Position numbers and translations under genes: made by a program. Under the pieces are notes generated by a model. That model saw only the letters and a program-made list of their open reading frames with translations. It ran no database searches and had not been told where the DNA came from. This document shows, piece by piece, positions 2,028 to 31,315 of a stretch of 31,373 bases of DNA. This DNA is from Nanobdellota archaeon (GTDB taxonomy: Archaea > Nanobdellota > Nanobdellia > Woesearchaeales > UBA583): assembly GCA_036146255.1 (NCBI GenBank), contig JAYYJK010000062.1, forward strand, positions 1 through 31,373. Reading direction: 5' to 3'. The stretch's first letter is position 1. Each line of letters starts with the position of its first letter.

Positions 2028-2510
2028 TTATTTATTTTTATTTTTGTACTCAATACTCTCAAAGGATTTAAGTTCTTCTAGCTCTGACATAAAGTCATTC
2101 ATTGAACCGTAATTGTTATGCACTATTGCGAATCTTAAAAATGCAATTTCATCTAAATCTTTTAGGTTTTTAAGAACAATTCTACCTACTGTTCCTGTTG
2201 GAATTGTTGTTCCTTCAACTTCTTTTAAATCTTTTAAAATAGACTCTAGACAACTCTCAATTTGTTCTAATGTAACTGGTCTTTTATCACAGGATTTAAG
2301 CACTGAATTTTTAATTTTAGGGAGTGAAAATACTTGGACTTCTCCATTTGATTTTTGAACTTCTAAATCTAATTTTAGTACTTTTTCAGCTGTTGAAAAT
2401 CTTTTCTCACATTTCTGACACTCACGTCTTCTTTTAATATTTGTTCCGTCTTTTGATTCACGTGAATCAATTACTTTTGTTTCGTTATGATTACAATATG
2501 GGCAGTTCAT
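2028..2510 (-). CDS. nrdR: transcriptional repressor NrdR (Zn-ribbon + ATP-cone)
   Basis: MNCPYCNHNETKVIDSR...IKRRRECQKCEKRFST.E, then ATP-cone VQKSNGEVQVF...KI and IAFLRFAIV; clustered with nrdAB. Confidence 0.96.
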   Translation of the reverse strand: MNCPYCNHNETKVIDSRESKDGTNIKRRRECQKCEKRFSTAEKVLKLDLEVQKSNGEVQVFSLPKIKNSVLKSCDKRPVTLEQIESCLESILKDLKEVEGTTIPTGTVGRIVLKNLKDLDEIAFLRFAIVHNNYGSMNDFMSELEELKSFESIEYKNKNK

Positions 2511-3109
2511 TTTAATTCTTCCAAATTTACTAAATATTTATCAAAAAATGTTTTAGACCAATTCTCAAGTTTATCATAAATTTCTTTAACTTGACTTTTT
2601 GACATGAATTCTCTATTATCTAATATATCAGTTTCACCCAGATTTAAATTTAGGAAATCTAAATTTAATACTGCTGCAATTCCAATATGATAAATACCTA
2701 CATTATCACTTTCATCATTAATAAATCCAACAAATTTTACTTGATCTTTTGTTACTTTAACACCAATTTCTTCTTCAATTTCTCTTAGTGTTGCATCAAC
2801 TAATAACTCCATACCAGATAAATTTTCATATTCATCAACATGTCCACCTACACCTAGAGAATATTTGTCGTGAAGTCTTGTTTCAGTTCCTTTTGGTGTT
2901 CTTCTGTATGTTAATAATTTTCCTTTGGAAATTACTGCAATGTATGGGATAAATTGCTTATATGAATCATCTTCTTCCATATCTGCTCTCCATTGTAACT
3001 CTGATTTTTCTAGAATTGAATTCAATTCTTCTTGTGAAAATTCCCAAAATGTATTGGGATTTTTAATCTCTTCTCTTGGTACAACTAGTATATTAATTTC
3101 TTTTGTCAT
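2507..3109 (-). CDS. ymaB: YmaB-like NUDIX-fold phosphoesterase (COG4112)
   Basis: ILVVPRE, EEDDSYKQFIPY, ETRLHDKYSLGVGGH, REIEEEIG, GFINDESDNVGIYHIG, LENWS recalled as closely matching B. subtilis YmaB motifs. Confidence 0.82.
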   Translation of the reverse strand: MTKEINILVVPREEIKNPNTFWEFSQEELNSILEKSELQWRADMEEDDSYKQFIPYIAVISKGKLLTYRRTPKGTETRLHDKYSLGVGGHVDEYENLSGMELLVDATLREIEEEIGVKVTKDQVKFVGFINDESDNVGIYHIGIAAVLNLDFLNLNLGETDILDNREFMSKSQVKEIYDKLENWSKTFFDKYLVNLEELK

Positions 3110-17055: not shown

Positions 17056-18855
17056 TTAAATTATATCTTGATTTTCAATACTTATTGGCTTTTTTTTTAT
17101 TTTTCCTAGGATGTTTAATAATTCTTCCTCGAGTAAAATATTATCTTGTATTAAATCACATACATATAATGCAAGTTCATATTTTGTTTTATTGTAGTAA
17201 GAGCATAAAATTTCCGAAAATTTTTTTTCTTCTAAATTCAATGTTTTTTTATTAAGCTTAGAGTCAAAAATTTTATTTAGAGATTTAATAAATAAACCTT
17301 CATCGTTAATGTCTAATAATTCTTTATTCTCATAGATAGCTTCTGCAAAAACTTTAAATTTGAAATCCCTAGGATATTTTTTAAGTATTTTTAGATCATC
17401 CGGTAATTTTAATAGATGTTTTGGATAATAATCTTCTAGTTCTCCTTTTGATAGTATGTGTATATTATCATCATATAAATTATCAATTTCAATTTTATTC
17501 TCAAGGTTTAATGCATCATTATCTAAAATTATGTGATATGGTATTTCAAACTTATTTAAAATTTTTATAAAATTATTTACATTATCTTTGCTATTCATAT
17601 TTATTATTGAACAATTATTAAATGTTTCTTCGAGCTTAAGAATATGACTAAAAAAAACCTTATCAGATAGTCCCTCTACAAGTATAACATAATCAGAAAA
17701 TAAAAATTCTGAATTCTCTTCTTTCACTACTTTTTGAAATAATTTATATAAATCCTTCTCTTCTTTATTTAAAACAAAACTGCGAGTTATATTTGAATTA
17801 TAATTCTTTTTAAATATGATTAATTGATCTGGGTTTGAATTTATTACAAATTTATCCGAATGTGATGTCAAAATAAATTGATTTTTAATGTTTGATAATT
17901 TTATATTCAAATTTTTTTGGGCTATAGGATGTAAATATAATTCAACTTCATCAATGCAAATGATTGGTAGAAATTGAAAAAAATCGTTTGCTTTCAGTAT
18001 TAAACTAAATAAAAAAAGGTTTTGTAACCCACATCCTTTAAATGATAAATCTTGTTCTTTACCGTCATTAACAATAATAGTTAAATTATCTAGTAAAAAT
18101 TCAGACTTTTTATATAAAGAAGTCAAAGGGTCTGAAAAGATATCTTCTTTCAACTCTTCCTTAGGAATAAATTTTATTGATTTTATTTCTGGAAAAAAAC
18201 TTTCCAACATGCTTTTTTCTACTGAAAAAAACCAATCATTAAAAAGATTATAAAAGTTACCTGTATTTAATTTTGATTCTGTAGAAGATATAAATTTCAT
18301 AATTAAATTTGTTATAATTAATCTAAAAGAAATACTAGAACTATCTTTTTGAAAATCATCTGATTTAATAATATCAAGAGTTCTATTAGTATCAAAAACC
18401 AAAGAATTAAAATAACGATATGTAGCAATTTTAACATATTCGTTAAAGTTACAATTATCATCATAATAGAAAGTTCCTTCTTCTCCGTATTTCCTTTCAA
18501 ATTTTAAATGGAATAATATTTTTCCTCCCTCTAGTTCAGTATAAACTCTTCGTTCACTGACTGGATTTGTAAATTCTTCTATATTTTTCACCTCCTCTTC
18601 ATCAAAACTAAAAAAAAGTTCAATTTTTATTGGATAATTGATATCGTGATATAAATTTTCATCATTAAACCTTTCATCAAACACAGGATTATCCTTCCCT
18701 TTATTAAATGGATTTAGCATTAATTTAATAGCTTCTAAAAATGCAGATTTTCCAGAATTATTTTTTCCAATAATTACATTTTTATTTTCATCAAGATTTA
18801 AATCGAGCTTCACAAAAGATTTAAAGTTTTCAATTCTAATCCTAACTAACTTCAT
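17056..18855 (-). CDS. OLD-family ATP-dependent nuclease (ABC ATPase + TOPRIM)
   Basis: IENFKSF, Walker A GKNNSGKS, signature-like GCGLQ, Walker B/D-loop IDEVELYLHP, TSHS; TOPRIM VILVEGLSD and ILDND; ELEDYY. Confidence 0.9.
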   Translation of the reverse strand: MKLVRIRIENFKSFVKLDLNLDENKNVIIGKNNSGKSAFLEAIKLMLNPFNKGKDNPVFDERFNDENLYHDINYPIKIELFFSFDEEEVKNIEEFTNPVSERRVYTELEGGKILFHLKFERKYGEEGTFYYDDNCNFNEYVKIATYRYFNSLVFDTNRTLDIIKSDDFQKDSSSISFRLIITNLIMKFISSTESKLNTGNFYNLFNDWFFSVEKSMLESFFPEIKSIKFIPKEELKEDIFSDPLTSLYKKSEFLLDNLTIIVNDGKEQDLSFKGCGLQNLFLFSLILKANDFFQFLPIICIDEVELYLHPIAQKNLNIKLSNIKNQFILTSHSDKFVINSNPDQLIIFKKNYNSNITRSFVLNKEEKDLYKLFQKVVKEENSEFLFSDYVILVEGLSDKVFFSHILKLEETFNNCSIINMNSKDNVNNFIKILNKFEIPYHIILDNDALNLENKIEIDNLYDDNIHILSKGELEDYYPKHLLKLPDDLKILKKYPRDFKFKVFAEAIYENKELLDINDEGLFIKSLNKIFDSKLNKKTLNLEEKKFSEILCSYYNKTKYELALYVCDLIQDNILLEEELLNILGKIKKKPISIENQDII

Positions 18856-18885
18856 ATATTATTTGAAAAGTTCTAATTTATATAT

Positions 18886-18960
18886 CTAACTCTCTTTCAA
18901 AAATTCTCTTACTTTCTCTTCTAATTCTTTTTTATCTAGAAGATGTAGTTTATATCTTGA
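18886..18960 (-). pseudogene. yhcG: 75-bp remnant of a yhcG 3' end (SRYKLHLLDKKELEEKVREFLKES*)
   Basis: 63/75 nt identical, without gaps, to the last 75 nt of the intact yhcG (21195-21269; SRYKLYLPDKKELEEKVREVLKEG*). Confidence 0.9.
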
Positions 18961-19108
18961 TTAAAATAATTTTGAATTAATTGACTTTCAAAACAAAGGT
19001 ATTTAAATTTATTTATATAAAGTAATTATATGAAAAATAATTTTTCTGAGATAATTATTAATGTCTATGTATTAATTACTATAGCTTTTTTTCATTATAT
19101 TTAGTTAT

Positions 19109-19714
19109 TTGTCTCAGATTAGCAGTTTTTTTGAAAAAATAATTAATATAATTATAGTTTTTATATTAATTCTAATTCTTTCTTCATTATATAACAATAT
19201 TATTAGATATCATAACATATATCTCTTAAATAAATATGCTAATGACAAAAAACTAACTGTTGAATTAATGTTTGGATATGATAATATTAAAAGTTTTATT
19301 ACGATATCTATCTTTAGAATTATTGGATTATTTAATTTAATTGAATATTTTTCTAAACGTAATATAAAATTTAAAATTTATATAAATATTAAAAAGGATA
19401 AATTTAATCAAATTATAAAAAATAAGAATATCCAAATATTGTATATTATAGGACACGATAAAAAAACTAAGTTTAAATTAAATAGAAATGAGGTAATATA
19501 TTATTCTGAATATAAAGAAACAAAAAATAAGAAAGAGGAGATACATCTATATCATTGTACACCTGGTACTCGAAAATCTTTAATTGATTATTTACTTAAA
19601 AAAGAAAATAAAACAGATATATCTAAGTTTTATATTAAAAACGATTTATTCTTCTCTTTTCTTGAAGGGATAAAGTTAAAAAATAGAAAGATCATTTTTT
19701 TAAAAAAAGACTGA
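19109..19714 (+). CDS. hypothetical protein with N-terminal TM helix; possible degenerate clan-CD (caspase/CHAT-like) domain
   Basis: TTG start, hydrophobic IINIIIVFILILILSSLY, later LYIIGHD and IHLYHC strand-His / strand-Cys pattern. Confidence 0.5.
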   Translation: MSQISSFFEKIINIIIVFILILILSSLYNNIIRYHNIYLLNKYANDKKLTVELMFGYDNIKSFITISIFRIIGLFNLIEYFSKRNIKFKIYINIKKDKFNQIIKNKNIQILYIIGHDKKTKFKLNRNEVIYYSEYKETKNKKEEIHLYHCTPGTRKSLIDYLLKKENKTDISKFYIKNDLFFSFLEGIKLKNRKIIFLKKD

Positions 19715-19919
19715 TTATATATCCAATTAAACTAATTATAATAATGAATAAAGCAAAATAAGAAATATCTACCAAAAACTCGCCTATAACTTTTTCTGGA
19801 TCTAAGAAAAGTAAAACTTCCCCAATTAAAAATGAAAATAAAAAAAATGGAACTCCTAATATTAAACCTTGTTTGGAATATTCTCTTAATAATTTTTTGT
19901 ATATATATTTCTTGACCAT
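19692..19919 (-). CDS. small two-TM membrane protein (75 aa)
   Basis: Two hydrophobic helices; converges on and overlaps the 3' end of the 19109 ORF. Confidence 0.5.
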   Translation of the reverse strand: MVKKYIYKKLLREYSKQGLILGVPFFLFSFLIGEVLLFLDPEKVIGEFLVDISYFALFIIIISLIGYIISLFLKK

Positions 19920-19965
19920 ATTAAATCTAAAATTTTATTATTTAAGTAATCTTCCAATGCCTCTT

Positions 19966-20439
19966 TTATTGAGAAATTATTTTTCTACCATTTTCATACA
20001 GTTCAATTTTAGTTTTTTCTTCAGTTTTACCTAAGATTATATAATAACCAATATTATAATAGAAGTTAGAATTATTAGTTAAAATACATAAGTTCTCTCT
20101 ATCTTTATCTCTATTAGAATAATTATTATATTTTTTAATTTCAAAACAAACTAAATCATCATTACCATTCTCATTTCTTTTTGTAATAACAATATCTATA
20201 TAGTTTCCATTTAAATTTGAAACTACTTTAGGTCCTGTTTTTTTATTTAAATGTGATTTATTGTATTCACAATCGACATAATAACCTTCAAAACCTTCTC
20301 TTTCTAAACAAACTGCAAGTCTATGGACAATACATCTCTCACATAAATCATTATCAAATAAAAATTTATCATTTTGATATAATTTATTAATTGCTGAATT
20401 TACTTTTTGTTTAATTATTTCTTTATTCATTTTTCCCAA
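19966..20439 (-). CDS. small PD-(D/E)XK restriction-endonuclease-like protein; true start probably the ATG at 20430
   Basis: ER.I.HRLA..L, VDCEYN, IDIVITKR, LVCFEIKK give an E...D...ExK pattern. Confidence 0.65.
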   Translation of the reverse strand: MGKMNKEIIKQKVNSAINKLYQNDKFLFDNDLCERCIVHRLAVCLEREGFEGYYVDCEYNKSHLNKKTGPKVVSNLNGNYIDIVITKRNENGNDDLVCFEIKKYNNYSNRDKDRENLCILTNNSNFYYNIGYYIILGKTEEKTKIELYENGRKIISQ

Positions 20440-20550
20440 CCATTTTCAAAGATTATCAAAGAACTTTTTTAGAAAGCTACAATATTCAACTATTTTTTTC
20501 TTCTCTTATTTCTTAGTAATAAATTCCTCTGTCTAAAAAAAATTAATCAT

Positions 20551-21156
20551 TTATTTCCACCTTGTTTGAGCTAATAAGGTATTGTTTAACTTAGAACCTA
20601 ATTTATCTTTTAAATTTTTAATATCTTCTTCTGTTGTATAGACAAAATCAAAATTTTTATTTTTTCTACATAAATTGGAATATTTTTCTTTCTTTGATTC
20701 CATATTATGTTTGTATTTAAGATCTTCTAATCCAAAGTGCTCAATAATTACAGATTTATTTTCATCAATATCAACTATAAAATCTGGATGTAAATCAATA
20801 TTGTCTATAGTTATTTTCTCTTCATAATATGGATTTAACCCATTTTGTTTTAAAAATAAATATATGATTACTTCAGATTTTGATTTAAATTTAATATTGT
20901 TGAAATAATAAATCCCTTCATATTTTTCTCTAAAGTTTTCTTCTTGTTTCTTCTTTATTAAATCTGCTTTTTTTATTTTCTTTGAAGCTTCTTGCTTTTC
21001 TAACCAATGCTCTTTACATAAATTATGGCCTTCAGGCACTTCAATATCACATACATCACAAGTAGGTTTTTGATTTTCTTTTTCAGAACATTCCCAACAT
21101 AAAGGAAACCATGGTTTTTTATAATTACCACAAGTAGGACATTTAGTTTGACTCAT
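20551..21156 (-). CDS. double zinc-finger protein with C-terminal PD-(D/E)XK/Vsr-like nuclease domain
   Basis: CPTC..CWEC and CDVC..CKEH; then KSKSEVII..FL, YYEE, PDF, IIEHFG. Confidence 0.7.
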   Translation of the reverse strand: MSQTKCPTCGNYKKPWFPLCWECSEKENQKPTCDVCDIEVPEGHNLCKEHWLEKQEASKKIKKADLIKKKQEENFREKYEGIYYFNNIKFKSKSEVIIYLFLKQNGLNPYYEEKITIDNIDLHPDFIVDIDENKSVIIEHFGLEDLKYKHNMESKKEKYSNLCRKNKNFDFVYTTEEDIKNLKDKLGSKLNNTLLAQTRWK

Positions 21157-21194
21157 ATATAAGTCTGATTTCTTTTATTTATAAAATCTATTAT

Positions 21195-22178
21195 TCAACC
21201 CTCTTTCAAAACTTCCCTTACTTTCTCTTCTAATTCTTTCTTATCAGGCAAATATAATTTATATCTTGATGCAAAGAGTTGATCATTATCTAAGGGAAGA
21301 GAATATTCAACTACTTGTTCTTTTTTATCTAAACATAAAAGAATTCCTATGGTTTTATTTTCTTCAGGAGATTTTACTTTTCTATCATAATAATTTACAT
21401 ACATTTGTAGTTGTCCTAAATGTTCATGCTTAAGTTCTCCAACTTTGAGTTCAAATATTACAAAGCATTTTAAGAAACGATTGTAAAAAACTAAATCAAT
21501 GTAAAAATATGTTGAATCTAGGATTATTTTTTCTTGTCTCGAAACAAATGAAAATCCTTTACCTAACTCCAAAATAAACTTCTGCAAATTATCAATTAAC
21601 TTTTGTTCCAAATCACTCTCAGATAATTTCTCTATTCCATCAAGTCCTAGAAATTCAAAAATAAAAGGATCTTTGATTAAATCTTTACCTGATTCAATTA
21701 CTTGTCCTTTCTTTGACAATTCTATAACTCCTCTTCTATCTCTGGATAATGCTATTCTCTCAAATAAAGCTGAATTAATTTGTCTTTGAAGTTCACGAAC
21801 TGACCAATTCTGAGACTCAATTTCCTTGATATAAAAGTTTCTTTTTATCTTATCTTCTATCCTTAAAAGTGTGCAATAGTGTGACCATCCCAAAAGGCCA
21901 GACAGTGTCTGGCTTTTTGGAAAGAGAATATATAACTTCTTCATATCTTTCAAATTAGATAAACTAAAACCTTTCCCATACTGTTTAGTTAACTCCTTAG
22001 ATAGTTCTTTCAGTAATCCTTTCCCATACTCAGCTTTAATTTCACCTTTCTGTTCTTCTTCAACTATCTTACGACCAATCTCCCAATAAGCTTTTACCAT
22101 AATAGTATTAATTTGTGTAACTGCTTGTTTTCTAGCATTCTCTATGATTATACCTATATCTTTTGAAATTGTTTTCAT
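21195..22178 (-). CDS. yhcG: YhcG / DUF1016 PD-(D/E)XK nuclease family protein
   Basis: AYWEIGRKIVEEEQ, LGWSHY, WSVRELQRQINS.LFER, KDPFIFEFL, ELGKGFSFV.RQ, YIDLVFYNR.LKCFV.FELK, GQLQMYVNYYD, IGILLC. Confidence 0.95.
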   Translation of the reverse strand: MKTISKDIGIIIENARKQAVTQINTIMVKAYWEIGRKIVEEEQKGEIKAEYGKGLLKELSKELTKQYGKGFSLSNLKDMKKLYILFPKSQTLSGLLGWSHYCTLLRIEDKIKRNFYIKEIESQNWSVRELQRQINSALFERIALSRDRRGVIELSKKGQVIESGKDLIKDPFIFEFLGLDGIEKLSESDLEQKLIDNLQKFILELGKGFSFVSRQEKIILDSTYFYIDLVFYNRFLKCFVIFELKVGELKHEHLGQLQMYVNYYDRKVKSPEENKTIGILLCLDKKEQVVEYSLPLDNDQLFASRYKLYLPDKKELEEKVREVLKEG

Positions 22179-25141
22179 CTTTTCACCTCAAAGTATTCAG
22201 TTAATTCTACTCTTGTCACTATAGTTATTTTCAAGTCACCAAGTAATCTCTCATAATATCTTTTCATTTTAGAATTCGTTAATACAATAATTACTTTATC
22301 ATATTCTTGAGAAACTGTTAAAAACTTTTGATATATCCTCTTTTTATGATACTTGAATCTAATTCCTGTCTCTACTTCTATTGCAATTTGTTTATCTTCA
22401 TTTGTGAGAACTAATAAATCTACATCCTTGACAACATTGACTTTGACTGTTTTAACATAAGGTTTTAGAAATTCTTTGATATTATGGACAATAAATGTAT
22501 GTTCAATACTTTCTACATCATTTGTTTTAACCCAAACTTCTTCAAACTTTACTTTATTTATTGGAACTAAGTTTGCAACTTTATATCCGTTTAATCCAAG
22601 TAAATTCTTTTCTCCTCTTGATAATACTTTTCCATAATAAAATCCTTTTTCTAGATCTAGTGTAATTTTACCATTCAATACAACATTTTTCTTTGTAACT
22701 ATAGTTCCATTTAATTCGTCTGGATTTGTTGTAATTATTTTATTTTCTTTAGGTGAAGCTACAACTTCAATTTCTTGATGTTCATTCTCTAAGATTAAAA
22801 TACCTCTTCCTTTAACTGAAGTTAATAGATAATCTTTTTCAACTTGAGACAAATTGAATGTTTTAACTACACTTGATATGACTGATGGTTTTTGTCTTAG
22901 TAATAAAGTATAAGATGAGTTTGAGAGAACTGCACTTCCTGCTTTTGATGATAATAAATCTTCTACATCTTGAGTTATTAATAATAACCCTAAATTGAAT
23001 TTACGACATGTCTTTACAATTTCAAAAATATATGATGCTTCTTCAGTTTTAGATAATAAAGACCATGCTTCATCAATTACAAGTAATTTTCTCTCTTTAC
23101 TTGACTTCATTCTAGAATATACAAATTCTAATACTAAAAACATTACAAGAGGTTTTACTTGTTTAGGCATGTCACCTATATTAAAACATACAAAATTTGA
23201 TTTAAAGTTAAGATTAGTTTCTCTATTCATGAAAGAAAATACTCCATGAGTAAACATGAATAATCTATTTAAAAGTGCCTGATAAGTTGTCTTTTCAATC
23301 CTATTTGCTTTTTTAGATAAGAGTTCTAATTCTTTGTATAAATCTCCTAGAATTGGCATTGAGGTATTTTCTTTTGAATTCTTTGTAATATTCTTTCTTG
23401 CATAAGTATTTGTTAAAGCTTTATCTAAAATTGCTTTTTGAATTTCAGATAATTCACCAAACATAATTTTAAACATATCCATTAGAGATAATCTTTTTTC
23501 AATATAGTCATGTCCCATTAAATCTAGAGGATTAATAATTGTCTCTGAATTTCTAGAAATTGTAATTAATTCTCCTTTAGAATAATTTGTCAAGTTAACA
23601 TACTCTCCTTGTGGATCAATTACTATTACTTGTGTATTTTGAAGTAGATGTCTTAATATTAATAACTTTGTAAAATATGATTTACCAGAACCTGATGTTG
23701 CTAAAATTACTCCATTTGCATTAGATAAATTATAGATATCTCTAATGATTGGAATTTTATTTTTATTTAATCCTAAAAAGATTCCATTCTCTTCCATTGA
23801 TAAGAAAGGCGAAGTTAGAGGGAAAAATGCAGATAAAGCATTAGTCGTAATATTTCTAGTTTCACCTATTTTATTTTGGGCTTTAGGTATTAAGCTTTGA
23901 TATCCTATGAATTGTTTAAATAAAGGAATTTTTGGTTGTATCATAATTGAATTTAATTCAGCTTCAACTTTCTTTGTTAGATAATCTAAATTTTCTTTTG
24001 AAGTTGATTTACAATTAATTATTAAAGAGATGTTGAATAATTTCTCTTCACCTTTTTGCAAATTGTCTAATACTTTTCTTGTATCTTTAAACTTAATTTC
24101 AAGCGAAGGATTAATTGAACCTTTAAGTTCCTCTGAATATAGATCAGCTCTTTGTTTTTGTAACTCTCTATTAAGCATAAGCATAGTTGATTCAATTGAT
24201 AAAGGTTCAATGTGAATTGTAATATCAAAGTCATCATTTGTAGATATTATCTTATCTAGAAATCCTTGCTCAACAACTCTTGGATATCCTGAAGTTGTAA
24301 TTACTCTTGAGAATTTCTCATTGAGTAAAAGATGATTATATTTCTCATCAATAAAACTTGGACCAATATTAAAGTTTAAACTATTTTGAAATTTTTCTTG
24401 AGTTTTATTTGATTCATTTGAACTATTAAAAAATAGATGTATTGTATTAACTAGTTGATTTGTATTCAATCTTTTTGAAGAGATTCCCAAATTTCTAAAT
24501 CTATCAATACATATATTTGTTTGAATTTCGATATTTGATATCTCTAAAATAGAGAGGTAGAATTTTCTATTTCTGATCTCTTTTTCAGAAATAAAATTTT
24601 TGATAAATTCTGAGAAATCTTCGTATAATTCTTGCTCATCATTTTTTTGTTTTAAATTTGTAAGATAGTCTTTAATGGATAAATTCTCTGTGGTTATTAC
24701 AAATTGAACTGGAAAATCAAGGGAATTTAGAAATTTCTGAAATGATTTAATAATTGAATATTTGTCATCGTCATTTCTAATTGAAAAGTTAATTGGTTGA
24801 ATTTCAAGAATAGATACTTTTCCCTTCTTTGTATATATGACATCATTTTCAATTTTATCAATATTAATTAGATCTTCAATTTTCATTTTTTGATTTGAAA
24901 ATTTAAATTTTAAAAATTGTAGGATATTAATTAACTTCTCAGAGAAATTAAAGAACATAAATCCTAAACCTAGTATGATAAAAGGTGAAGATAGTATTGA
25001 GAAGATATAGATATTAGAATTATTTTTAAATAATATCAATACTGGAATTAAAAAGATAAATGCATAAAATAACTGTGTTAATGTTAAATTAAATATGATT
25101 TTTTCTTTATGTTTAAGTTCTTGTGGTATTTCATAGGACAT
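22175..25141 (-). CDS. virB4: VirB4-like conjugation ATPase with N-terminal PrgI/VirB3-like membrane domain and C-terminal nuclease-like extension
   Basis: N-terminal YEIPQELKHKEKIIFNLTLTQL + 2 TM (PrgI-like); Walker A ATSGSGKS; IDPQGEY, INPLD; Walker B VIDEAW; RKFNLGL..ITQDVED; GRGIL; about 180-aa tail with EH..V, D and IAIEVETG. Confidence 0.85.
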   Translation of the reverse strand: MSYEIPQELKHKEKIIFNLTLTQLFYAFIFLIPVLILFKNNSNIYIFSILSSPFIILGLGFMFFNFSEKLINILQFLKFKFSNQKMKIEDLINIDKIENDVIYTKKGKVSILEIQPINFSIRNDDDKYSIIKSFQKFLNSLDFPVQFVITTENLSIKDYLTNLKQKNDEQELYEDFSEFIKNFISEKEIRNRKFYLSILEISNIEIQTNICIDRFRNLGISSKRLNTNQLVNTIHLFFNSSNESNKTQEKFQNSLNFNIGPSFIDEKYNHLLLNEKFSRVITTSGYPRVVEQGFLDKIISTNDDFDITIHIEPLSIESTMLMLNRELQKQRADLYSEELKGSINPSLEIKFKDTRKVLDNLQKGEEKLFNISLIINCKSTSKENLDYLTKKVEAELNSIMIQPKIPLFKQFIGYQSLIPKAQNKIGETRNITTNALSAFFPLTSPFLSMEENGIFLGLNKNKIPIIRDIYNLSNANGVILATSGSGKSYFTKLLILRHLLQNTQVIVIDPQGEYVNLTNYSKGELITISRNSETIINPLDLMGHDYIEKRLSLMDMFKIMFGELSEIQKAILDKALTNTYARKNITKNSKENTSMPILGDLYKELELLSKKANRIEKTTYQALLNRLFMFTHGVFSFMNRETNLNFKSNFVCFNIGDMPKQVKPLVMFLVLEFVYSRMKSSKERKLLVIDEAWSLLSKTEEASYIFEIVKTCRKFNLGLLLITQDVEDLLSSKAGSAVLSNSSYTLLLRQKPSVISSVVKTFNLSQVEKDYLLTSVKGRGILILENEHQEIEVVASPKENKIITTNPDELNGTIVTKKNVVLNGKITLDLEKGFYYGKVLSRGEKNLLGLNGYKVANLVPINKVKFEEVWVKTNDVESIEHTFIVHNIKEFLKPYVKTVKVNVVKDVDLLVLTNEDKQIAIEVETGIRFKYHKKRIYQKFLTVSQEYDKVIIVLTNSKMKRYYERLLGDLKITIVTRVELTEYFEVKR

Positions 25142-25142
25142 T

Positions 25143-26078
25143 TTATTTTACCCCCTTTGATCTCACTACTTTAGTGATTGTTTTGTAATACTTGATTATA
25201 CTCTTTGAAGATGTTGATTTATAAGAGGATACTGATAATGTAAATTTTCCTAAGAATATAAAAAGAAATATTACAAGTAAGTATGCACAAATCATAAACA
25301 TTGTTTTAGTAATTCCGCTATATTGTACAACTAATTGAGATACAACAAGAAGTATTAATGATGCAAAGAATGTTGAGAAAATAAATACCATTAATATATT
25401 TAGAAATAATTTCCCGTATGATCTCAGTGGAGGAATAAAATAGAGGAAAATACCTAATGGAAAAAGTATTAGGCCTAAGAAGATAATAATAATTCTAATT
25501 GCTAAAAAAACTGCTGTAATTAAAAGGATTATCATATATATCAACAATAATGTTGTTTGAGTTCCTTGGTTGAAGAGTCCTAAGTTTTGAAGTTGGTAAA
25601 ATGATTCAGGAATCCTTGATAAAATACTTTGAACTAAAGTTGAATTTAATTCTAGAATTAGGTTATAGATAAAATAAGATCCTTGAATTAATATTAACAT
25701 AAATAATGTATTTTTTAACCATTCCTTAGCTAATTCTCTTTTTACAACATCATGTCCTGATATAATAAAAAGAAAACCAGCATAAGCTATAATTAATACA
25801 TAAAAAAAAGATAATATGTACGTAATTATTTTCCAATTATAATAATTATTTGATATATCTGGATTTTCTTCCATAAACTCTCTAATTAAATTATTGAAAG
25901 GTTCTAATGCTTGATTCATTAAATATAAAATATAATCAAATAATTTCTCAGGAATATAAAAAATAGCATCTGAGAGTTCTTCAAATAAATCATCAAAAAA
26001 TGAAAAGTCATTATCATCATCTTGAGCAAATACTGAAGGAATTAGTAGAAGTATTGTTAAAAAAATAAATAGTTTCAT
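25143..26078 (-). CDS. VirB6/TrbL-like polytopic membrane protein
   Basis: Signal peptide, amphipathic region, then 6-7 TM helices including ILFPLGIFLYFIP.LRSYG; located between the pilin-like gene and virB4. Confidence 0.65.
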   Translation of the reverse strand: MKLFIFLTILLLIPSVFAQDDDNDFSFFDDLFEELSDAIFYIPEKLFDYILYLMNQALEPFNNLIREFMEENPDISNNYYNWKIITYILSFFYVLIIAYAGFLFIISGHDVVKRELAKEWLKNTLFMLILIQGSYFIYNLILELNSTLVQSILSRIPESFYQLQNLGLFNQGTQTTLLLIYMIILLITAVFLAIRIIIIFLGLILFPLGIFLYFIPPLRSYGKLFLNILMVFIFSTFFASLILLVVSQLVVQYSGITKTMFMICAYLLVIFLFIFLGKFTLSVSSYKSTSSKSIIKYYKTITKVVRSKGVK

Positions 26079-26389
26079 GATATAACATAGTTAATCACAA
26101 TTGGTGCAACCCATATAACAAATAAACCAATGATAACGTAACCTCCCGTAGTTTTAGCATCATCTCTTTTCTTTTGTTCTGAACCTGATGTCATAAATTG
26201 AACTCCAACAAATACTAAAGCAAGAACTGCAATGACTGTTGCTGCATATTTAATGAAGTTATATATCTTCATAATTGGAGTAAGCATAGTGTCAAATGTT
26301 TCCTTATCTTCATCACTTAGTTCTTGATTAAAATCAAGACTAAACACGCTTGGAAGTAAAAGGAAAAGTAAAAATATGATAGATTTCAT
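26075..26389 (-). CDS. TrbC/VirB2-like pilin
   Basis: Signal peptide + two hydrophobic helices separated by GVQFMTSG....RDDAK; 104 aa; first gene of the virB-like operon. Confidence 0.75.
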   Translation of the reverse strand: MKSIIFLLFLLLPSVFSLDFNQELSDEDKETFDTMLTPIMKIYNFIKYAATVIAVLALVFVGVQFMTSGSEQKKRDDAKTTGGYVIIGLFVIWVAPIVINYVIS

Positions 26390-26523
26390 GTATTTTTGAT
26401 ATGAATTGAGAGAATATAAAAAATGAGTTGAAAAAATGGAGAAAATCTACTGAAGAGTTGAAAATGTTGTTTTAATTTATAAAAAAATGAACATTTAAAA
26501 TTTGATTTGTATAAAGAAGATAA

Positions 26524-29397
26524 TTACTTTAAGTAAATTTCTTGGATTAGGTTTAATATTTTCTTTTTTACATATTGTGTTTCAAATTTAATTTCAATTT
26601 CTGAATTAAAAAGTTTTTCTGCATGTTTAATTTTTCTTTTTTCTTCTTCTCTTAAACTATCATCATCAGTATTTTTGGTTTCAACAACTAAATTTAATTT
26701 TTTATTTCCATTTTTAAAATTTAGAACATACGCAAAATCAGGAGAATAGGTTTTTCCTCCAGCTACTGGAATTTTAATTGAATTCTTTGGGATTTTAGTA
26801 AAAACAACAACTTCAGTTAAATTTTGTTGAATATTCTCTTTTTCTAATTCAGAATCATAAAATAATTCATCAAAAATATAATTTTCTGCTACTTTCTCTT
26901 CAGAATATGAAATACCTACATTTGAGGAATCAATTTCAGTTAAAACATCTCCTTTTCCGTCAGTAATCTTTGTTGGGTGAATTGAATTTGTAACTTTTTG
27001 ATATTCAATACTAAATTTTTCTATTGCATTATATAGTAAATAGTTGTCAAATTTTTGCTTAAAAATTCTGATTGTATTTTGATTCAAATACTTATTAATT
27101 TCAGTTTTAGTATCAATAAAACTTTGGTGTATTGTTTTCAGATTAATATTTAATATATTTGATAGTTGAATTAAAAAATCATCATATTTCATTGTTGAAA
27201 TTGGAGTTATCTCATTTTCAGAAATATTATATTCTTCGTGACTTTGGGCAGAGTTGTTTTCAATTTCAAGTTTAACTATTTTCTCTTGTACTCCTTCAAT
27301 AGAAAAAAATGTGTTATTATTTAGAAAATCTATGAATAATTCTTTAAATTTAGATTCATTTTCAATTTTATATTCTAAAATTACTTTTTCATTTAATTTC
27401 TCCCACAATTCTTTTAATTCAGAATATTTTTCAGCTCTAATTTTAACTTTTTTTTTCAAATTTGAGGATTTTCTAATTTTATTTGAATCAATTCCTTCAA
27501 AAATCAAAGGAAAATTAGATTTAATATAGTCAAATCCATTTTCTTTAAAATCATTATTTCTTTTAATAATATCTTTTTCATCTAATTGATCTAAAAGTGC
27601 ATCTTCTGTTAAATTATATTTTTCAATAATTTGTTTTATCATATTATTATCTAATTTAATTGGAATATTCTCTCTTGAAATTGCACCTGACTTCTCATTA
27701 ATTTCATTAACTAACCTTTCTACAAAGTCATTTTCTGTAAAGTCAACAAAATAGTTTAAATAAAATTGCTCTTCTTTGACTCTGTTGAAAAATTCATTTA
27801 CAGGAAGTCTTAAACCTCTACCAACTTCTTGTAATTTGGAAGTTTCAGAACCACTACTTCTTAATTTACAGATTTGAAAAATATTTGGATTGTCCCAACC
27901 TTCTCTAAGTGTCCATTTTGAAAAAATAAATCTTCTGGGATTATTTAAATTTAATATTGATTTTTTATCATGTAAAATTTCAGTAACTTCTTTTTCAATA
28001 GATTCTTCACTATTTTTATTATCTTCTGAAAAATAACCTCCATGTGTTTTAGGAATATCTTCTAATGTTTTTTTTAAATAATTTTTATAAAATTCATTAT
28101 TTTCAGTTTTTAACAAATTTTCAACTTCTGATTTGATATATTTTTCAACAATTAATCTAATTGAACCATTCTCATTTCTATATTCTTCAATGTTATCAAT
28201 AAAAAAAAGAGATAGTGGTTTAATTTTAACTTCCCTAGTAAGGTATTTTTTTTCTTGTTGAAAATGATTTTTAATAGTTTTTTTAATCATAGTTTCTTGA
28301 AGTGTTTGGGAATAAGAATAAGGATTTATTTTATCTCCTTTTTTTAATTCTAATCCATTTGATAAAATAATTGTATTTTTATTTAAATTTTCAATATATA
28401 AATCACTCATTGCCGGATGAACTTTTTCTAAACTATCTTTTTTTATTAATTTAAATGTTTTCTTTTTAATATCCTCATTGAGTTCTAAGGTTGCTTCTTT
28501 ACCATCAGAATTATTAAATTTAACTAAAATATTTTCTCCATTCTCAAATTCAGTAATATGTGCTGTAACTCCTTTAACAAGATTCCTATTAAATGAATCT
28601 ACAGCTGTTAATGTATATACTAAATTTTCATAAGCATTATCTTTAAATGTTGCTCCATATCTTAAAATAAACTGAGGTTTGATATGTTCTGTAATATTTT
28701 TCCAAGATTTTCCTGTGTCCCCAAATTTATGTGGTTCATCAATAATCATAAATGGCTTTGTTGAAGAAATTGCTTCAAATGGTATTGAATATTTATCTAA
28801 TAAAGATTTATCATAACTCTCCAACATTTTTTTAGAATTAATCATCCCACTATTAATAATTAAAACCTGAATTTTATTCTTTTCAAATTTACCTGAATTT
28901 ACAAAACTAGTCACAGCAGTTGGCATATATGATTTTTGGTTTTTTCTAACTTTTTGACTTTCAATAATATGTAAATTAATTGTTTTCCCATATTGTTCTT
29001 TAAAATGTTCTTTAGTACTATCAGAAGTTAAAAAATCTATAGTTCCTGCTTTAATTGGAAGAGTTGGGACAACAATAATAAATTTATTAATTCCATGAAT
29101 TTTATTTAATTCAAATATTGTTTTTGTATAAGTATAAGTTTTTCCGGTTCCAGTTTCCATCATAATATCAATAATATTACTTTTTCCTTTTACATTTCTT
29201 TCAATATTATTTTGTTCTTGAATATTCCCAATATTATTTACATATGTGAAATTTGATTCTGTGTCAAAAATTGGATTTGTGAAATCTTTATATAAATTTT
29301 GCGAATTCTTGATATCAAGAGAATTAAAAACACCTATTGTTGATTTAACAGCTTGTGTTTGATGATCTAAATTTTTTTCGAAGTTAAAATTTGACAT
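26524..29397 (-). CDS. res: type III restriction-modification endonuclease/helicase subunit Res
   Basis: METGTGKT, IIDEPH, LREGWDNPN, QEVGRGLR, C-terminal nuclease SPDF...VVETK. Confidence 0.95.
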   Translation of the reverse strand: MSNFNFEKNLDHQTQAVKSTIGVFNSLDIKNSQNLYKDFTNPIFDTESNFTYVNNIGNIQEQNNIERNVKGKSNIIDIMMETGTGKTYTYTKTIFELNKIHGINKFIIVVPTLPIKAGTIDFLTSDSTKEHFKEQYGKTINLHIIESQKVRKNQKSYMPTAVTSFVNSGKFEKNKIQVLIINSGMINSKKMLESYDKSLLDKYSIPFEAISSTKPFMIIDEPHKFGDTGKSWKNITEHIKPQFILRYGATFKDNAYENLVYTLTAVDSFNRNLVKGVTAHITEFENGENILVKFNNSDGKEATLELNEDIKKKTFKLIKKDSLEKVHPAMSDLYIENLNKNTIILSNGLELKKGDKINPYSYSQTLQETMIKKTIKNHFQQEKKYLTREVKIKPLSLFFIDNIEEYRNENGSIRLIVEKYIKSEVENLLKTENNEFYKNYLKKTLEDIPKTHGGYFSEDNKNSEESIEKEVTEILHDKKSILNLNNPRRFIFSKWTLREGWDNPNIFQICKLRSSGSETSKLQEVGRGLRLPVNEFFNRVKEEQFYLNYFVDFTENDFVERLVNEINEKSGAISRENIPIKLDNNMIKQIIEKYNLTEDALLDQLDEKDIIKRNNDFKENGFDYIKSNFPLIFEGIDSNKIRKSSNLKKKVKIRAEKYSELKELWEKLNEKVILEYKIENESKFKELFIDFLNNNTFFSIEGVQEKIVKLEIENNSAQSHEEYNISENEITPISTMKYDDFLIQLSNILNINLKTIHQSFIDTKTEINKYLNQNTIRIFKQKFDNYLLYNAIEKFSIEYQKVTNSIHPTKITDGKGDVLTEIDSSNVGISYSEEKVAENYIFDELFYDSELEKENIQQNLTEVVVFTKIPKNSIKIPVAGGKTYSPDFAYVLNFKNGNKKLNLVVETKNTDDDSLREEEKRKIKHAEKLFNSEIEIKFETQYVKKKILNLIQEIYLK

Positions 29398-29398
29398 T

Positions 29399-31315
29399 TT
29401 AATACCTCTTTACAAAATCAATTTCACTTCCTTTTTTATTGTTATAATTTTTAACATTCTCAGAAATTTCTCTTAACATTTTACTTTCAAAATTATATCC
29501 AAAACATATAATTGATGTTGGATTAAACTCTGAATCTTCATCAATTTTATTTAATAATTCTTTTAAATTTTTAGTTTTAAAATTAATATCCATTAAATAT
29601 AACTTATTTCCAAAATAGTATCCTGTATAGTCATTTAAGTCAACTTCAACTAAGTCTTTTGTTAATGGAATATTATCATAAGTTTTCCATGTAGTTAATA
29701 ATGTTTGAATATCTTCAGAATTTAATTTACTTTCATTAAACAGTTTAGTTTGGGGATTAAATTCATCTAAATCTAAATTATAATTTTTCCAAATTGGAAT
29801 TGTTTCAAAAATTTTAAATCCAAAATCAATATTTGTTAAATCTTTATTATTTTCTTTTATTTTATTTGCAGCTCTAACTAATCTTTCTTTAGTAATATGA
29901 AATATTGTTGGGTTTTCTTCTTTTAATTCATTTTTAACAAAATCATAGGCAACCTTATCTTTTTTCTTATCAATTTCCTGAGGTATTTGAACTAAAATAA
30001 ATTTTCTATTCCCCAAATTATTTGTATTTAATTGCATAATTGCATCTGCTGTCGGCCCAGACCCTGCAAAGAAATCTAAAATAATTTCATTCTCATTTGA
30101 ATTCGTTGCTAAAATTAAAAATCTTTTTATTAAATCAATAGGTTTAGGATATCCAAACACACTTTTTCCTTCAAATAGTTCTGTCAATTTTTTTCTAGCT
30201 CCATCGGTATGCCCAACTTCATCATAACTTAAAATTGTTTTGGTTATAATTCCATCCATATCAGCTAAATAAGTTTTCATCCTTGGTCTTTTTGAAGTAT
30301 CATCCGGCAAATAAATTCTATTCTCTAAAATCAAAGATTTCATTCTTTCCTCAGTAAATTGCCATTGTTTTCCATCAGGTAATTTATATATTTTATTACC
30401 TGATTTAATATCGTAAGTATAACCTTTACCCTGATCAATAGTTAAATCTGATTTAGTATATCTTCCCCTACCATCATTATCATCACAATTATAATGTTTA
30501 TTAGTTTTCTCTGTTCTTTCTAATCTATTAAATTTTTCAATTTTTTCTAAAGCTTTAGCATAACATAATATATATTCATGATCAGTTGTTGTATATTTAT
30601 TTTGATTTTTTGGACTATATATTTTTTGCCAAATAAATTCTGAAATAAAATTCTCTTCACCAAAGATTTCATCCATTAAAAATCTCAATTGAGCAACTTC
30701 ATTATCATCAATAGAAATGAAAATAACTCCATCATCTTTTAATAATTGTTTAGCAATATATAACCTTGGATACATGAAAGTAAGCCATGCACTATGAGAA
30801 TTACTTTTACTTTCTGTAAATTTTAATATTTTTTCAGCTTTATCTTTATCAACTCCTGCTAACTCTGATAATTCTTCAGAAGTGAATTTTCTATCATCTT
30901 CATAAACAAATCCATCTGATCCCGTATTATATGGTGGGTCAATATAAATCATCTTAATTTTCTCTTCATAATTATTAGATAAATGTTTTAAAACTTCTAG
31001 ATTGTCTCCTTTTAAAAGTAGATTCTCCGAATTTTTATTTTCATCTCTAGAATTCCATTCTTTATCTTCTTTTAACAAAGTAGTTGCAGAATCTGTTGCT
31101 AGAAGTCTAGCATAACTTTTTCCTAACCAATCTAACCCATAACTTTCTTTAGAAAAGTCAATTTCACTTTTCAAAAGGATTTTTTTAAACTTTTCAATAT
31201 CAAAATTGCTTTCTTTGTCAAAACAATGCGAAAAATGTTTTTGTAGAATTTCTAATTCCTTATTTGGAACTTTAATGTCATTTGTAATAGTTTCTTTAAC
31301 TATATCCTTGCTCAT
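29399..31315 (-). CDS. mod: type III restriction-modification DNA methyltransferase Mod (beta class, probably m6A)
   Basis: KGDNLEVLK, motif IV IDPPYNTG, HSAWLTFMYPRL, PKP, motif I LDFFAGSG; directly upstream of res. Confidence 0.95.
   Translation of the reverse strand: MSKDIVKETITNDIKVPNKELEILQKHFSHCFDKESNFDIEKFKKILLKSEIDFSKESYGLDWLGKSYARLLATDSATTLLKEDKEWNSRDENKNSENLLLKGDNLEVLKHLSNNYEEKIKMIYIDPPYNTGSDGFVYEDDRKFTSEELSELAGVDKDKAEKILKFTESKSNSHSAWLTFMYPRLYIAKQLLKDDGVIFISIDDNEVAQLRFLMDEIFGEENFISEFIWQKIYSPKNQNKYTTTDHEYILCYAKALEKIEKFNRLERTEKTNKHYNCDDNDGRGRYTKSDLTIDQGKGYTYDIKSGNKIYKLPDGKQWQFTEERMKSLILENRIYLPDDTSKRPRMKTYLADMDGIITKTILSYDEVGHTDGARKKLTELFEGKSVFGYPKPIDLIKRFLILATNSNENEIILDFFAGSGPTADAIMQLNTNNLGNRKFILVQIPQEIDKKKDKVAYDFVKNELKEENPTIFHITKERLVRAANKIKENNKDLTNIDFGFKIFETIPIWKNYNLDLDEFNPQTKLFNESKLNSEDIQTLLTTWKTYDNIPLTKDLVEVDLNDYTGYYFGNKLYLMDINFKTKNLKELLNKIDEDSEFNPTSIICFGYNFESKMLREISENVKNYNNKKGSEIDFVKRY

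Follow-up and report, generated by a model that had tools for sequence, protein, structure and literature searches.

What might genes for a conjugation-type pilin, a VirB6-like channel protein and a VirB4 ATPase be doing in a DPANN-like archaeon, and does the nuclease gene yhcG at the end of their operon belong to the same machinery? These questions are raised by a 31,373-nt stretch of DNA (hereafter, the window), whose operon had been interpreted in a first-pass annotation as a stripped-down archaeal DNA-transfer machine resembling the Ced system, with YhcG as its dedicated partner nuclease. The reading that we favour, with confidence slightly above even, is that the pilin, the VirB6-like protein and a VirB3-like/VirB4/PD-(D/E)xK ATPase form the core of an accessory module of DPANN archaea derived from type IV secretion systems (T4SSs), that yhcG is not one of its components, and that the module may be used for DNA transfer. 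The earlier assignment to an archaeal, DPANN-like cell was upheld: the window encodes Cbf5 with DKCLD and PUA domains, and the nearest relatives of its VirB4 are labelled Woesearchaeota, Pacearchaeota or Nanoarchaeota.

The four genes are tightly packed (Table 1), and the junction sequences confirmed the intervals reported previously: overlaps of 4 nt (ATGA) at both the pilin/VirB6-like and VirB4/yhcG junctions, and a 1-nt gap (TAA-a-ATG), with an AGGGGG motif upstream, between the VirB6-like gene and VirB4. A GAGGTGA motif precedes the yhcG ATG by 5 nt. Such 4-nt overlaps are commonplace in a genome as compact as this one (for instance, 2028..2510 with 2507..3109). Judging from its sequence, the spacer that separates res from the pilin gene may be the operon promoter, and yhcG is probably co-transcribed with the operon.

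Table 1. Features of the operon and the surrounding island (window positions; the four operon ORFs are read from the higher to the lower coordinate)
Feature	Position	Strand	Basis or details
VirB2/TrbC-type T4SS pilin, 104 aa	26075..26389	-	PF18895 and PF04956
VirB6-like polytopic channel protein, 311 aa	25143..26078	-	structure match and position
VirB3-like/VirB4/nuclease-like fusion ATPase, 988 aa	22175..25141	-	P-loop_TraG, DUF87, AAA_10
VirB3/PrgI-like N-terminal membrane hairpin of VirB4, residues 5-64	24950..25129	-	PrgI PF12666
PD-(D/E)xK-fold nuclease-like C-terminal domain of VirB4, residues ~820-988	22178..22684	-	AF2 and fold matches
yhcG, DUF1016_N and YhcG_C PD-(D/E)xK nuclease, 327 aa	21195..22178	-	Pfam and PADLOC
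A/T-rich spacer between res and pilin gene	26390..26523	-	TATA-like runs 25-100 nt upstream of pilin ATG
Type III R-M genes directly upstream of operon	26524..31315 (res 26524-29397, mod 29399-31315)	-	NCBIfam PRK15483, PADLOC
Remaining low-GC island	17056..21156	.	OLD/GajA-like nuclease, yhcG 3' remnant, four small ORFs
OLD/GajA-like nuclease	17056-18855	-	OLD TOPRIM and AAA_15; PADLOC Old 1.4e-36
yhcG 3' remnant beside OLD gene	18883-18971		89-nt direct repeat, 82% identity

The pilin matched PF18895 (9.7e-13) and the TrbC/VirB2 family PF04956 (9e-9), both over the cut-off, and its hydrophobic segments (residues 3-21, 45-63 and 85-103) correspond to a signal-like N-terminal segment followed by two hydrophobic helices. 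Homologues with 40-58% identity precede VirB4 in most of the related loci. The VirB6-like protein has six hydrophobic segments, and its gene is kept directly upstream of VirB4 in relatives. When its AF2 model (pLDDT 85) was compared with PDB by Foldseek, the top five matches were all TrwI/VirB6 of R388 (E 3.5e-3, prob 1.0), and the VIA Z of 10.1 over 223 residues barely exceeded that of a designed helical repeat. In addition, residues 83-131 weakly matched PF18895, and the N-terminal part resembles the pilin (BLASTP between the two, 6e-4), as has been reported for CedA and CedA1 of the Ced system (PMC9905601).

The ATPase matched P-loop_TraG (3.8e-27) and the NCBIfam model CD1110 (331 bits, cut-off 325), as well as a Mycoplasma ICE model at 347 bits, which is under the cut-off of that model; the sole solved homologue found by sequence was the VirB4 structure 4AG5 in PDB (2.8e-35). 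Its Walker A (G484, G486, K487 and S488) and Walker B (D690 and E691) residues were invariant in 32 homologues. The N-terminal hairpin, consisting of two hydrophobic helices (residues 19-37 and 46-64), matched PrgI PF12666 (1.8e-5) with 25.6 bits, slightly below the cut-off of 27. For the C-terminal domain (AF2 pLDDT 88), nearly all of the best fold matches were PD-(D/E)xK nucleases (Z up to 8.2), including NucS, Can2/Card1, BspD6I, VC1899 and Hjc. Six of its residues (H881, D908, E922, E924, K939 and Y963) are invariant among homologues, and a weak CoiA_nuc match was observed in 6 of 26 members. Because it carries E-x-E in place of the classic E-x-K and its fold scores are middling, its catalytic activity is putative. 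The conserved nuclease candidate of the module is this fused domain rather than YhcG, and the presence of a conserved domain of DNA-nuclease type on the motor suggests that DNA is the substrate.

The absence of a coupling protein, relaxase and integrase from the window, as noted in the first-pass annotation, held, since none of these families was matched by its ORFs. In the whole assembly (0.95 Mb, 85% complete), nothing exceeded the cut-offs of T4SS-DNA_transf, TraG-D_C and FtsK_SpoIIIE, or of Relaxase, Rep_trans and Mob_Pre, and as the relaxase search covered some MOB families in a genome of this completeness, a relaxase or type IV coupling protein (T4CP) could be missed. The description of a stripped-down, Ced-like archaeal machine was thus borne out with respect to its three-part composition without relaxase or T4CP, but the term minimal overstated the case. 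The module is not truly minimal: VirB4 itself is a three-part fusion, and a fourth conserved gene (X), which is not at the operon locus, lies intact together with a second pilin elsewhere in the genome, on contig C5. Gene X is also missing from the locus in three other relatives (L011, L012 and L105).

No published description of this module family was found. The module is widespread but patchy in DPANN archaea, including Woesearchaeota, Pacearchaeota, Nanoarchaeota and Altiarchaeota, and the gene order pilin-(X)-VirB6-VirB4 is kept in approximately 45 loci. It was detected in 22 of 151 genomes of the same order, with up to three copies in one genome, and was absent from the one genome of the same genus that was searched. 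Related modules often adjoin restriction-modification (R-M) genes, integrases or tRNA genes; tyrosine recombinases, Shedu, reverse transcriptase, Schlafen/SMC and Mrr are among their neighbours, and tRNA-integrase junctions are located upstream of the module in two loci (L010 and L023). R-M or methylase markers were present in 24 of 45 DPANN loci versus 1 of 32 Patescibacteria loci, a comparison that is biased against the bacterial loci because the markers were drawn from the DPANN ones. In the window, the module sits in a foreign-looking defence island: the GC content of positions 16951-31373 is 23.8%, versus 28.4% for the genome, and falls under the 5th percentile of 5-kb windows genome-wide. 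The type III res and mod genes (PRK15483, 5.6e-302; PADLOC REase_III and MTase_III) are the sole R-M marker match in the whole genome, and two of the four small island ORFs matched the PADLOC defence candidates PD-Lambda-3_A (5e-11) and PDC-S68 (6e-13). No integrase, tRNA gene or att repeat was found in the window, and the contig stops 58 nt past mod. A distribution that is patchy, multi-copy, low in GC and often next to integrases and tRNA genes is more in keeping with the apparatus of a mobile element than with a function of the host.

One such host function could be DNA import. [quoted passage not shown] 2023, PMC9905601), and, compared by description, both share with the present module an archaeal VirB2-like pilin, a VirB6-like polytopic protein and a VirB4-like ATPase, again without relaxase or coupling protein; the signal-peptide-like N-terminus of the pilin is also similar to that of TedC (PMC9905601). 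An importer of this kind, with which the DPANN cell would take up DNA of its kin or host for use in repair or as a nucleotide source while the VirB4 tail processes incoming strands, has a much smaller share of our confidence. Import would suit the weak resemblance between the tail and CoiA, a competence nuclease that resolves D-loops during natural transformation (PMC13663708), and the adjoining R-M systems could police imported DNA. However, the CoiA match could reflect the shared fold alone, and Ced and Ted are fixed features of their orders in Thermoproteota, whereas the DPANN module is patchy, island-borne and multi-copy. Moreover, Ced and Ted were reported as recognisable by profile or structure comparison only (PMC9905601), whereas the pilin and VirB4 described here match bacterial Pfam and NCBIfam models directly, and this VirB4 differs in that VirB3 and a nuclease-like domain are fused to it.

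In sequence, the module most resembles the monoderm MPF-FATA systems and the T4SSs of Patescibacteria. The MPF-FATA/FA systems of Firmicutes and Mollicutes possess a relaxase, a T4CP, VirB8/PrgL-like parts and cell-wall hydrolases and lack conjugative pilins. The likeness lies in VirB4 (CD1110 family, the ICE ATPase Mbov_0397 and T. pseudethanolicus VirB4, 4AG5), whereas the DPANN module has a VirB2 pilin, and relaxase, T4CP, VirB8/PrgL-like parts and hydrolases were not found. Among the matches listed, the best non-archaeal VirB4 matches were those of Patescibacteria (29-38% identity, E ~1e-100 to 1e-112), which, like DPANN archaea, are ultra-small episymbionts with relaxase-poor VirB2/VirB6/VirB3/VirB4 sets derived from monoderm MPF-FATA. 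Their T4SSs, mostly without relaxases, are essential for epibiotic growth and are believed to function in host interaction, not in conjugation (PMC12102498), and T4SS genes are essential in Southlakia epibionticum (PMC10633639). It is conceivable, but in our view improbable, that the DPANN module likewise mediates host attachment or the uptake or injection of macromolecules instead of DNA transfer. The DPANN proteins fall into a clade of their own, supported at 100%, and VirB4 is present in 2,417 of 3,035 Patescibacteria genomes (PMC12102498), i.e., a T4SS in approximately 80%, whereas the DPANN module is found in approximately 15% and is missing even from the same-genus genome. The nuclease-like domain on the motor, which also argues for DNA, is missing from Patescibacteria VirB4, alignments to which end near residue 810. 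Other differences include the VirB3-VirB4 fusion, of which there were none in that study (PMC12102498), the TrsD-like gene, none being seen here, and the abundance of R-M genes and integrases in DPANN loci.

A similarly small chance is left to the proposal that, in this lineage at least, YhcG is a dedicated partner nuclease whose translation is coupled to that of VirB4 and which acts on transferred DNA. The overlap at its start codon, the strong GAGGTGA motif within the 3' end of VirB4 and the lack of an obvious TATA before yhcG would suit such a partnership, and the linkage probably recurs, in very close kin only, to judge indirectly from contigs of matching length: for a strain-level relative, a partial VirB4 and a YhcG with 94% identity are both recorded with a Logan contig of 4,189 nt, and a YhcG with 79% identity and a VirB4 with 74% identity are each recorded on a JGI contig of 19,236 nt. 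By contrast, for VirB4 relatives at 70% identity (contigs of 25,898 and 12,624 nt), no YhcG is listed on contigs of these lengths, and the overlap is weak evidence of partnership because such overlaps are ordinary in this genome. When conservation of the coupling was checked, yhcG was near VirB4 in none of 50 DPANN VirB4 loci with at least 1.2 kb downstream, and a yhcG start codon overlapping the VirB4 stop was seen in no other examined locus. Among the 151 same-order genomes, VirB4 was present in 22, yhcG in 25 and both in 4 (3.6 expected by chance), and the two never shared a contig outside this genome. YhcG is a full two-domain protein (DUF1016_N, 1e-45; YhcG_C, 1.6e-56) that matched the PADLOC defence-island candidate family PDC-S02 (5e-137); DUF1016 is reportedly enriched beside R-M and BREX loci (PMC9881135), in agreement with the R-M-adjoining island here, and in one same-order genome (L120) yhcG lies between type III mod and res. 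The diverged second yhcG 3' end beside the OLD gene likewise associates yhcG with the island, not with the T4SS, and the module already has a conserved nuclease candidate fused to VirB4. The proposed partnership was therefore not sustained, and we read yhcG as a defence-island gene that joined the operon at its 3' end recently, within this shallow lineage.

It is very doubtful that the operon is a decaying, non-functional remnant of an integrated element, as the absence of gene X from the locus and of an integrase and a tRNA gene from the window, together with the island rearrangement marked by the yhcG remnant, might suggest. None of the three core ORFs is disrupted or shortened, and they retain all family-invariant residues; contig C5 carries gene X and a second pilin in intact form, and three relatives likewise lack X at the locus.

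Under the favoured reading of an accessory, T4SS-derived module, the pilin would form a conjugative-type pilus on a VirB6 pore powered by a VirB4 hexamer, and the substrate would be DNA, moved either into or out of the cell. The cytoplasmic, putatively catalytic nuclease-like tail of VirB4 may carry out the DNA processing that is performed by relaxase and T4CP in bacterial conjugation. The likeliest use of the module in these DPANN archaea would be the transfer of the island or element that bears it.

The pilin, VirB6-like, VirB4 and yhcG genes form a run of four co-directional open reading frames on the minus strand (see the table below), and the gene set described in the first-pass annotation is correct, with its overlaps and single-nucleotide gap confirmed by the junction sequences: an ATGA overlap joins the pilin and VirB6-like genes, one base separates the latter from VirB4, and a second ATGA overlap joins VirB4 to yhcG. 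Purine-rich Shine-Dalgarno-like motifs precede the starts of VirB4 (AGGGGG) and yhcG (GAGGTGA), and yhcG is probably co-transcribed with the module here. Because 4-nt overlaps are routine in this genome, as in one further gene pair, such coupling alone tells little about function. The genome of the uncultured source organism (0.95 Mb, 85% complete, GC 28.4%) is represented here by one entire contig of 31,373 nt, whose archaeal origin is supported by a TruB-family protein with the domains of Cbf5.

Features of the window, of the source genome and of related loci discussed in the text
Feature	Location	Coordinates	Strand	Remarks
TruB-family protein	window	1005-2024		DKCLD and PUA domains of Cbf5
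Gene pair with 4-nt overlap	window	2028..2510 / 2507..3109
Low-GC block	window	16951-31373		OLD/GajA-like nuclease; four small ORFs; yhcG and T4SS genes; type III R-M system
Direct repeat, first copy	window	18883-18971		89 nt, 82% identity to second copy
Small ORF	window	19966-20439		no Pfam family
Small ORF	window	20551-21156		no Pfam family; weak double zinc-ribbon match
Direct repeat, second copy	window	21192-21280
yhcG	window	22178..21195	minus	327 aa
VirB4	window	25141..22175	minus	988 aa
VirB6-like	window	26078..25143	minus	311 aa
VirB2-type pilin	window	26389..26075	minus	104 aa
Second pilin, then X	L088, contig C5 of source genome (G000)	5801-7203	minus	pilin 59% identical, PF18895 7.6e-17
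Large secreted beta-propeller-type protein	L088	4133-5659	minus	downstream of X
Large secreted beta-propeller-type protein	L088	911-2773	minus	downstream of X
Stand-alone tail homologue	G110:C49, same-order genome	1660-2088
Stand-alone tail homologue	G087:C52, same-order genome	53305-53787
tRNA-integrase junction	L023, related locus	5838-7150		tRNA-Asp
tRNA-Leu abutting integrase	L010, related locus	3396-4841		upstream of module
yhcG between type III mod and res	L120 (G114:C23), same-order genome	2-4366		all on one strand

The motor of the module is clearly recognizable. The VirB4 protein exceeds the cut-offs for P-loop_TraG (95 bits against 25.8) and NCBIfam CD1110 (331 bits against 325) and also passes those for DUF87 and AAA_10, while PF26593 is a precomputed assignment on its homologues; the only solved relative found by sequence is 4AG5 (2.8e-35). 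Its Walker A (GSGKS) and Walker B (DE) motifs are intact and invariant among homologues. Fused to the N-terminus is a two-helix hairpin resembling PrgI/VirB3, and the C-terminus carries approximately 170 additional residues. This tail of the window's VirB4 has no Pfam match even at E values up to 10, and it is well conserved: H, D, E-x-E-T-G and Y are invariant in an alignment of 26 tails, in which a lysine occurs in more than 90%, and this lysine (K939) is invariant in a separate full-length alignment (n=32). D908, E922 and E924 are likewise invariant, with a glutamate in place of the usual lysine of the D...(D/E)-x-K motif and K939 as the invariant lysine further downstream. Modeled on its own (pLDDT 88), the tail matches almost exclusively PD-(D/E)xK nucleases, including NucS/EndoMS, the nuclease domains of Can2, Card1 and Cdn1, BspD6I, VC1899, Hjc and XPF; the Z scores (up to 8.2) are middling, yet the list is consistent. 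On the basis of this model, the tail is predicted to adopt a restriction-endonuclease-like fold and is a candidate nuclease.

The same domain is found in the ESM Atlas as stand-alone Nanobdellota proteins of 175-181 aa and at the C-terminus of HerA-type ATPases of Planctomycetota, and stand-alone homologues of about 175-179 aa are encoded in two genomes of the same order. The VirB4 proteins of Patescibacteria lack it, and their matches end near residue 810. Two family assignments were considered. The CoiA nuclease-like family (CoiA_nuc) is weakly matched by 6 of the 26 tails (best E 7.6e-5), CoiA itself being a D-loop resolvase of natural transformation (PMC13663708), and the MOB-C-like family Replic_Relax occurs in 12-16% of the members of matching Atlas clusters (TM 0.62). 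We do not accept membership of either family, the Replic_Relax lead being the weaker of the two, and both may reflect a shared fold only.

The pilin is assigned to the VirB2/TrbC type by PF18895 (48 bits, cut-off 26.6) and PF04956 (35.9 bits, cut-off 27.9), and it has a signal-like N-terminus followed by two hydrophobic helices. Searches of PDB sequences with the pilin and VirB6 homologue profile (21 sequences, E up to 1) returned no match. The protein encoded beside VirB4 is polytopic with six hydrophobic segments and, save for a weak pilin match, has no Pfam family at E values up to 10. In its AlphaFold model (pLDDT 85), the five best Foldseek matches across the whole PDB are all TrwI/VirB6 of plasmid R388 (probability 1.0, E 3.5e-3), and VIA-align scored the comparison at Z 10.1 (223 residues), with a designed helical repeat protein scarcely lower; the model thus lends modest support to its description as VirB6-like. 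Its N-terminal third resembles the pilin (the weak match is to PF18895; BLASTP 6e-4), and the same relation between a channel protein and its pilin was described for CedA/CedA1 and VirB6/VirB2 (PMC9905601).

Far from being confined to this genome, the module belongs to a large family. Hundreds of VirB4 proteins of approximately 990 aa, 47-74% identical and with the same precomputed domain set, are found in assemblies of Woesearchaeota, Pacearchaeota and Nanoarchaeota. In the loci examined (47 from species genomes and 20 from metagenomes), a pilin gene and a VirB6-like gene lie upstream of VirB4 nearly wherever the flank is long enough. What is conserved is a unit of the pilin, the VirB6-like pore protein and a VirB4 that is anchored in the membrane, retains its ATPase site and carries, fused to the motor, a nuclease-fold domain whose acidic residues are invariant. 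An unrooted FastTree analysis separated archaeal VirB4 proteins (50 of Nanoarchaeota type and 6 of Altiarchaeota type) from 17 Patescibacteria sequences at 100% support and placed that of the window among rows labelled Woesearchaeota. Several loci with bacterial or methanogen titles (L004, L007, L030, L035 and several 'Methanosarcinales' loci) also have VirB4 proteins nested among Woesearchaeota, L007 ('Bacteroidota') being almost identical to the woesearchaeal L015, and these titles are probably binning or labelling errors.

In most loci a fourth gene, designated X, lies between the pilin and VirB6-like genes. It encodes a protein of 380-465 aa that starts with a signal or anchor segment, continues with a long polar stretch and has a membrane segment at its C-terminus, and in many loci it is fused to the N-terminus of VirB6 to give proteins of 660-740 aa. 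X has no Pfam family, and the ESM Atlas was uninformative (pLDDT 0.36, scores 0.76). The window does not contain X, but the same genome encodes a second VirB2-type pilin immediately followed by X on contig C5, which indicates that the module is split over two places and that the earlier description of the operon as 'minimal' was an overstatement. C5 does not join the contig of the window; instead, it overlaps C126 (locus L121), a metal-resistance region, by 127 nt. Upstream of the second pilin, L121 encodes two cation-efflux proteins, a multicopper oxidase, a DUF411 protein and DsbA, as well as a signal peptidase II (Peptidase_A8), which is unusual in an archaeon. Two large secreted beta-propeller-type proteins are encoded downstream of X, the first of which has a hydrophobic N-terminus that looks like a putative archaeal type IV pilin signal.

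The absence of further conjugation genes from the window, as stated at first reading, was borne out: none of its ORFs matched a coupling protein, relaxase or integrase. Nothing in the 85%-complete genome scored above the cut-offs for the coupling protein families T4SS-DNA_transf (PF02534), TraG-D_C (PF12696) and FtsK_SpoIIIE (PF01580), nor were there matches to Relaxase (PF03432), Rep_trans (PF02486) or Mob_Pre (PF01076), three families that cover part of relaxase diversity. CONJscan defines a conjugative element by a relaxase, a T4CP, a VirB4 and an accessory T4SS gene, and the first two were not found in this incomplete genome with the three relaxase families searched.

The genomic setting of the module looks like that of an accessory region. 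The right 14.4 kb of the contig, which runs from the OLD gene to where the contig stops just upstream of mod, has a GC content of 23.8%, below the 5th percentile of 5-kb windows in the genome, whereas the left part (28.2%) is typical of the genome. Its type III R-M system is the only R-M marker match in the whole genome, and two of its small ORFs (19966-20439 and 20551-21156) match PD-Lambda-3_A (5e-11) and part of PDC-S68 (6e-13), respectively. The window has no tRNA gene or integrase; the two tyrosine recombinases/integrases of the genome are on other contigs. Apart from the duplication of the yhcG 3' end, no plausible att pair was present among direct and inverted repeats in 15500-31373, and DNA comparison with a genome of the same genus (G040) gave only short matches of 66-84% and no synteny by which to delimit the island. 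Relatives provide a clearer picture. R-M or methylase markers were present in the fetched flanks of 24 of 45 DPANN loci and 1 of 32 Patescibacteria VirB4 loci, a comparison biased by the choice of markers from the DPANN loci. Other recurrent neighbours include three tyrosine recombinase families, Shedu, a reverse transcriptase, a Schlafen/SMC pair, Mrr and TFB. In L010 and L023, a tRNA gene lies immediately beside a tyrosine recombinase gene, a few kb upstream of the module, like the edge of an integrated element, and L023 continues in the order tRNA-Asp, integrase, methylase, module and type I R-M. The module was detected in 22 of 151 genomes of the same order, with up to three copies per genome, and was absent from the one same-genus genome searched. 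Taken together, patchiness, copy number, low GC and the company of R-M, integrase and tRNA genes are more in keeping with an accessory unit that moves horizontally than with a fixed organelle of the cell.

The same surveys speak against the proposal that YhcG is a dedicated partner nuclease of a DNA-transfer machine. The protein is a complete YhcG, with DUF1016_N (155.7 bits) and the PD-(D/E)xK domain YhcG_C (191 bits) far above their cut-offs (about 32.5-32.8), and it matches the PADLOC defence candidate PDC-S02 (5e-137). Of the DPANN loci, 50 have 1.2 kb or more of sequence downstream of VirB4, and none of these contains a yhcG homologue. Among the 151 same-order genomes, VirB4 was present in 22, yhcG in 25 and both in 4, against 3.6 expected, and in the other three genomes with both, the genes are on separate contigs. 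At the level of the family, partnership is thus not upheld, nor is the coupling conserved beyond a probable recurrence in very close kin: a partial VirB4 and a YhcG of 94% identity are each listed on a Logan contig of 4,189 nt, and a VirB4 of 74% and a YhcG of 79% identity on a JGI contig of 19,236 nt, so that the linkage, as judged from matching contig sizes, is probably common to these kin. Relatives at 70% VirB4 identity gave no such YhcG match. DUF1016 genes were reported to be strongly enriched beside R-M and BREX loci, at times between R-M core genes (PMC9881135), and in another genome of the same order (G114) yhcG is flanked by type III mod and res. Within the window, a second and diverged YhcG is represented by its last ~30 residues, which the first copy of the direct repeat encodes together with a separate stop codon. 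This fragment lies 34 nt before the OLD-family gene and has the appearance of a remnant of a former yhcG allele at the island edge; this suggests that yhcG belonged to the island independently of the T4SS genes. YhcG may contribute to defence together with the R-M and OLD genes beside it, and we read the VirB4-yhcG coupling as a local accident of island architecture rather than a new two-nuclease machine.

With regard to function, the module most likely serves the transfer of the island that carries it, and two other readings remain live. The first is a Ced-like import system. The archaeal DNA-import systems Ced and Ted also consist of pilin, VirB6-like and VirB4-like proteins without relaxase or T4CP, and the module matches them in this architecture; PDB sequence searches with the module proteins gave no Ced or Ted protein. 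Ced and Ted are fixed, chromosomal and order-wide, unlike the patchy, sometimes multicopy module. The second is a host-interaction system like that of Patescibacteria. By sequence, the module seems nearest to monoderm MPF-FATA systems and the Patescibacteria T4SS, but the DPANN VirB4 proteins fall outside the Patescibacteria clade, and VirB3 is encoded separately in Patescibacteria, whereas its counterpart is fused to VirB4 in the module. The VirB3-VirB4-nuclease fusion, the X gene, a VirB2 pilin that is unaccompanied by the other monoderm parts, and the island-borne, patchy distribution set the module apart from all four systems. Literature on DPANN, Nanoarchaeota or Woesearchaeota with VirB4, T4SS or type IV secretion yielded no description of such a module; the nearest published work is PMC9905601 and PMC12102498, and the single DPANN case found was the VirB4-like domain of the giant nanohaloarchaeal SPEARE proteins.

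If the module does transfer its island, VirB4 hexamers at the VirB6 pore would assemble a VirB2 pilus and move DNA, while the cytoplasmic VirB4 tail would take the place of relaxase and T4CP by nicking or trimming DNA at the channel base. More speculatively, X might form a cap or extension on the pore, as VirB5 does on VirB6 in R388. In many relatives X is fused to the N-terminus of VirB6, which faces outward; a VirB5-like role for X would be a guess drawn from this fusion. The full proposal, that the VirB4-fused PD-(D/E)xK domain replaces both relaxase and coupling protein and that DPANN integrative islands with R-M and defence cargo transfer themselves between cells by relaxase-free conjugation through a VirB2 pilus, is put forward as a possibility that we ourselves consider rather doubtful. 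The family bears on two questions, namely how DNA is exchanged among DPANN archaea and how it is prepared without a relaxase in archaeal T4SS-derived machines, for which it offers a concrete candidate in the form of a single motor protein with its own nuclease-type domain. In addition, the R-M, methylase and integrase genes that habitually accompany it point to a vehicle by which defence islands may spread from one ultra-small archaeon to another.
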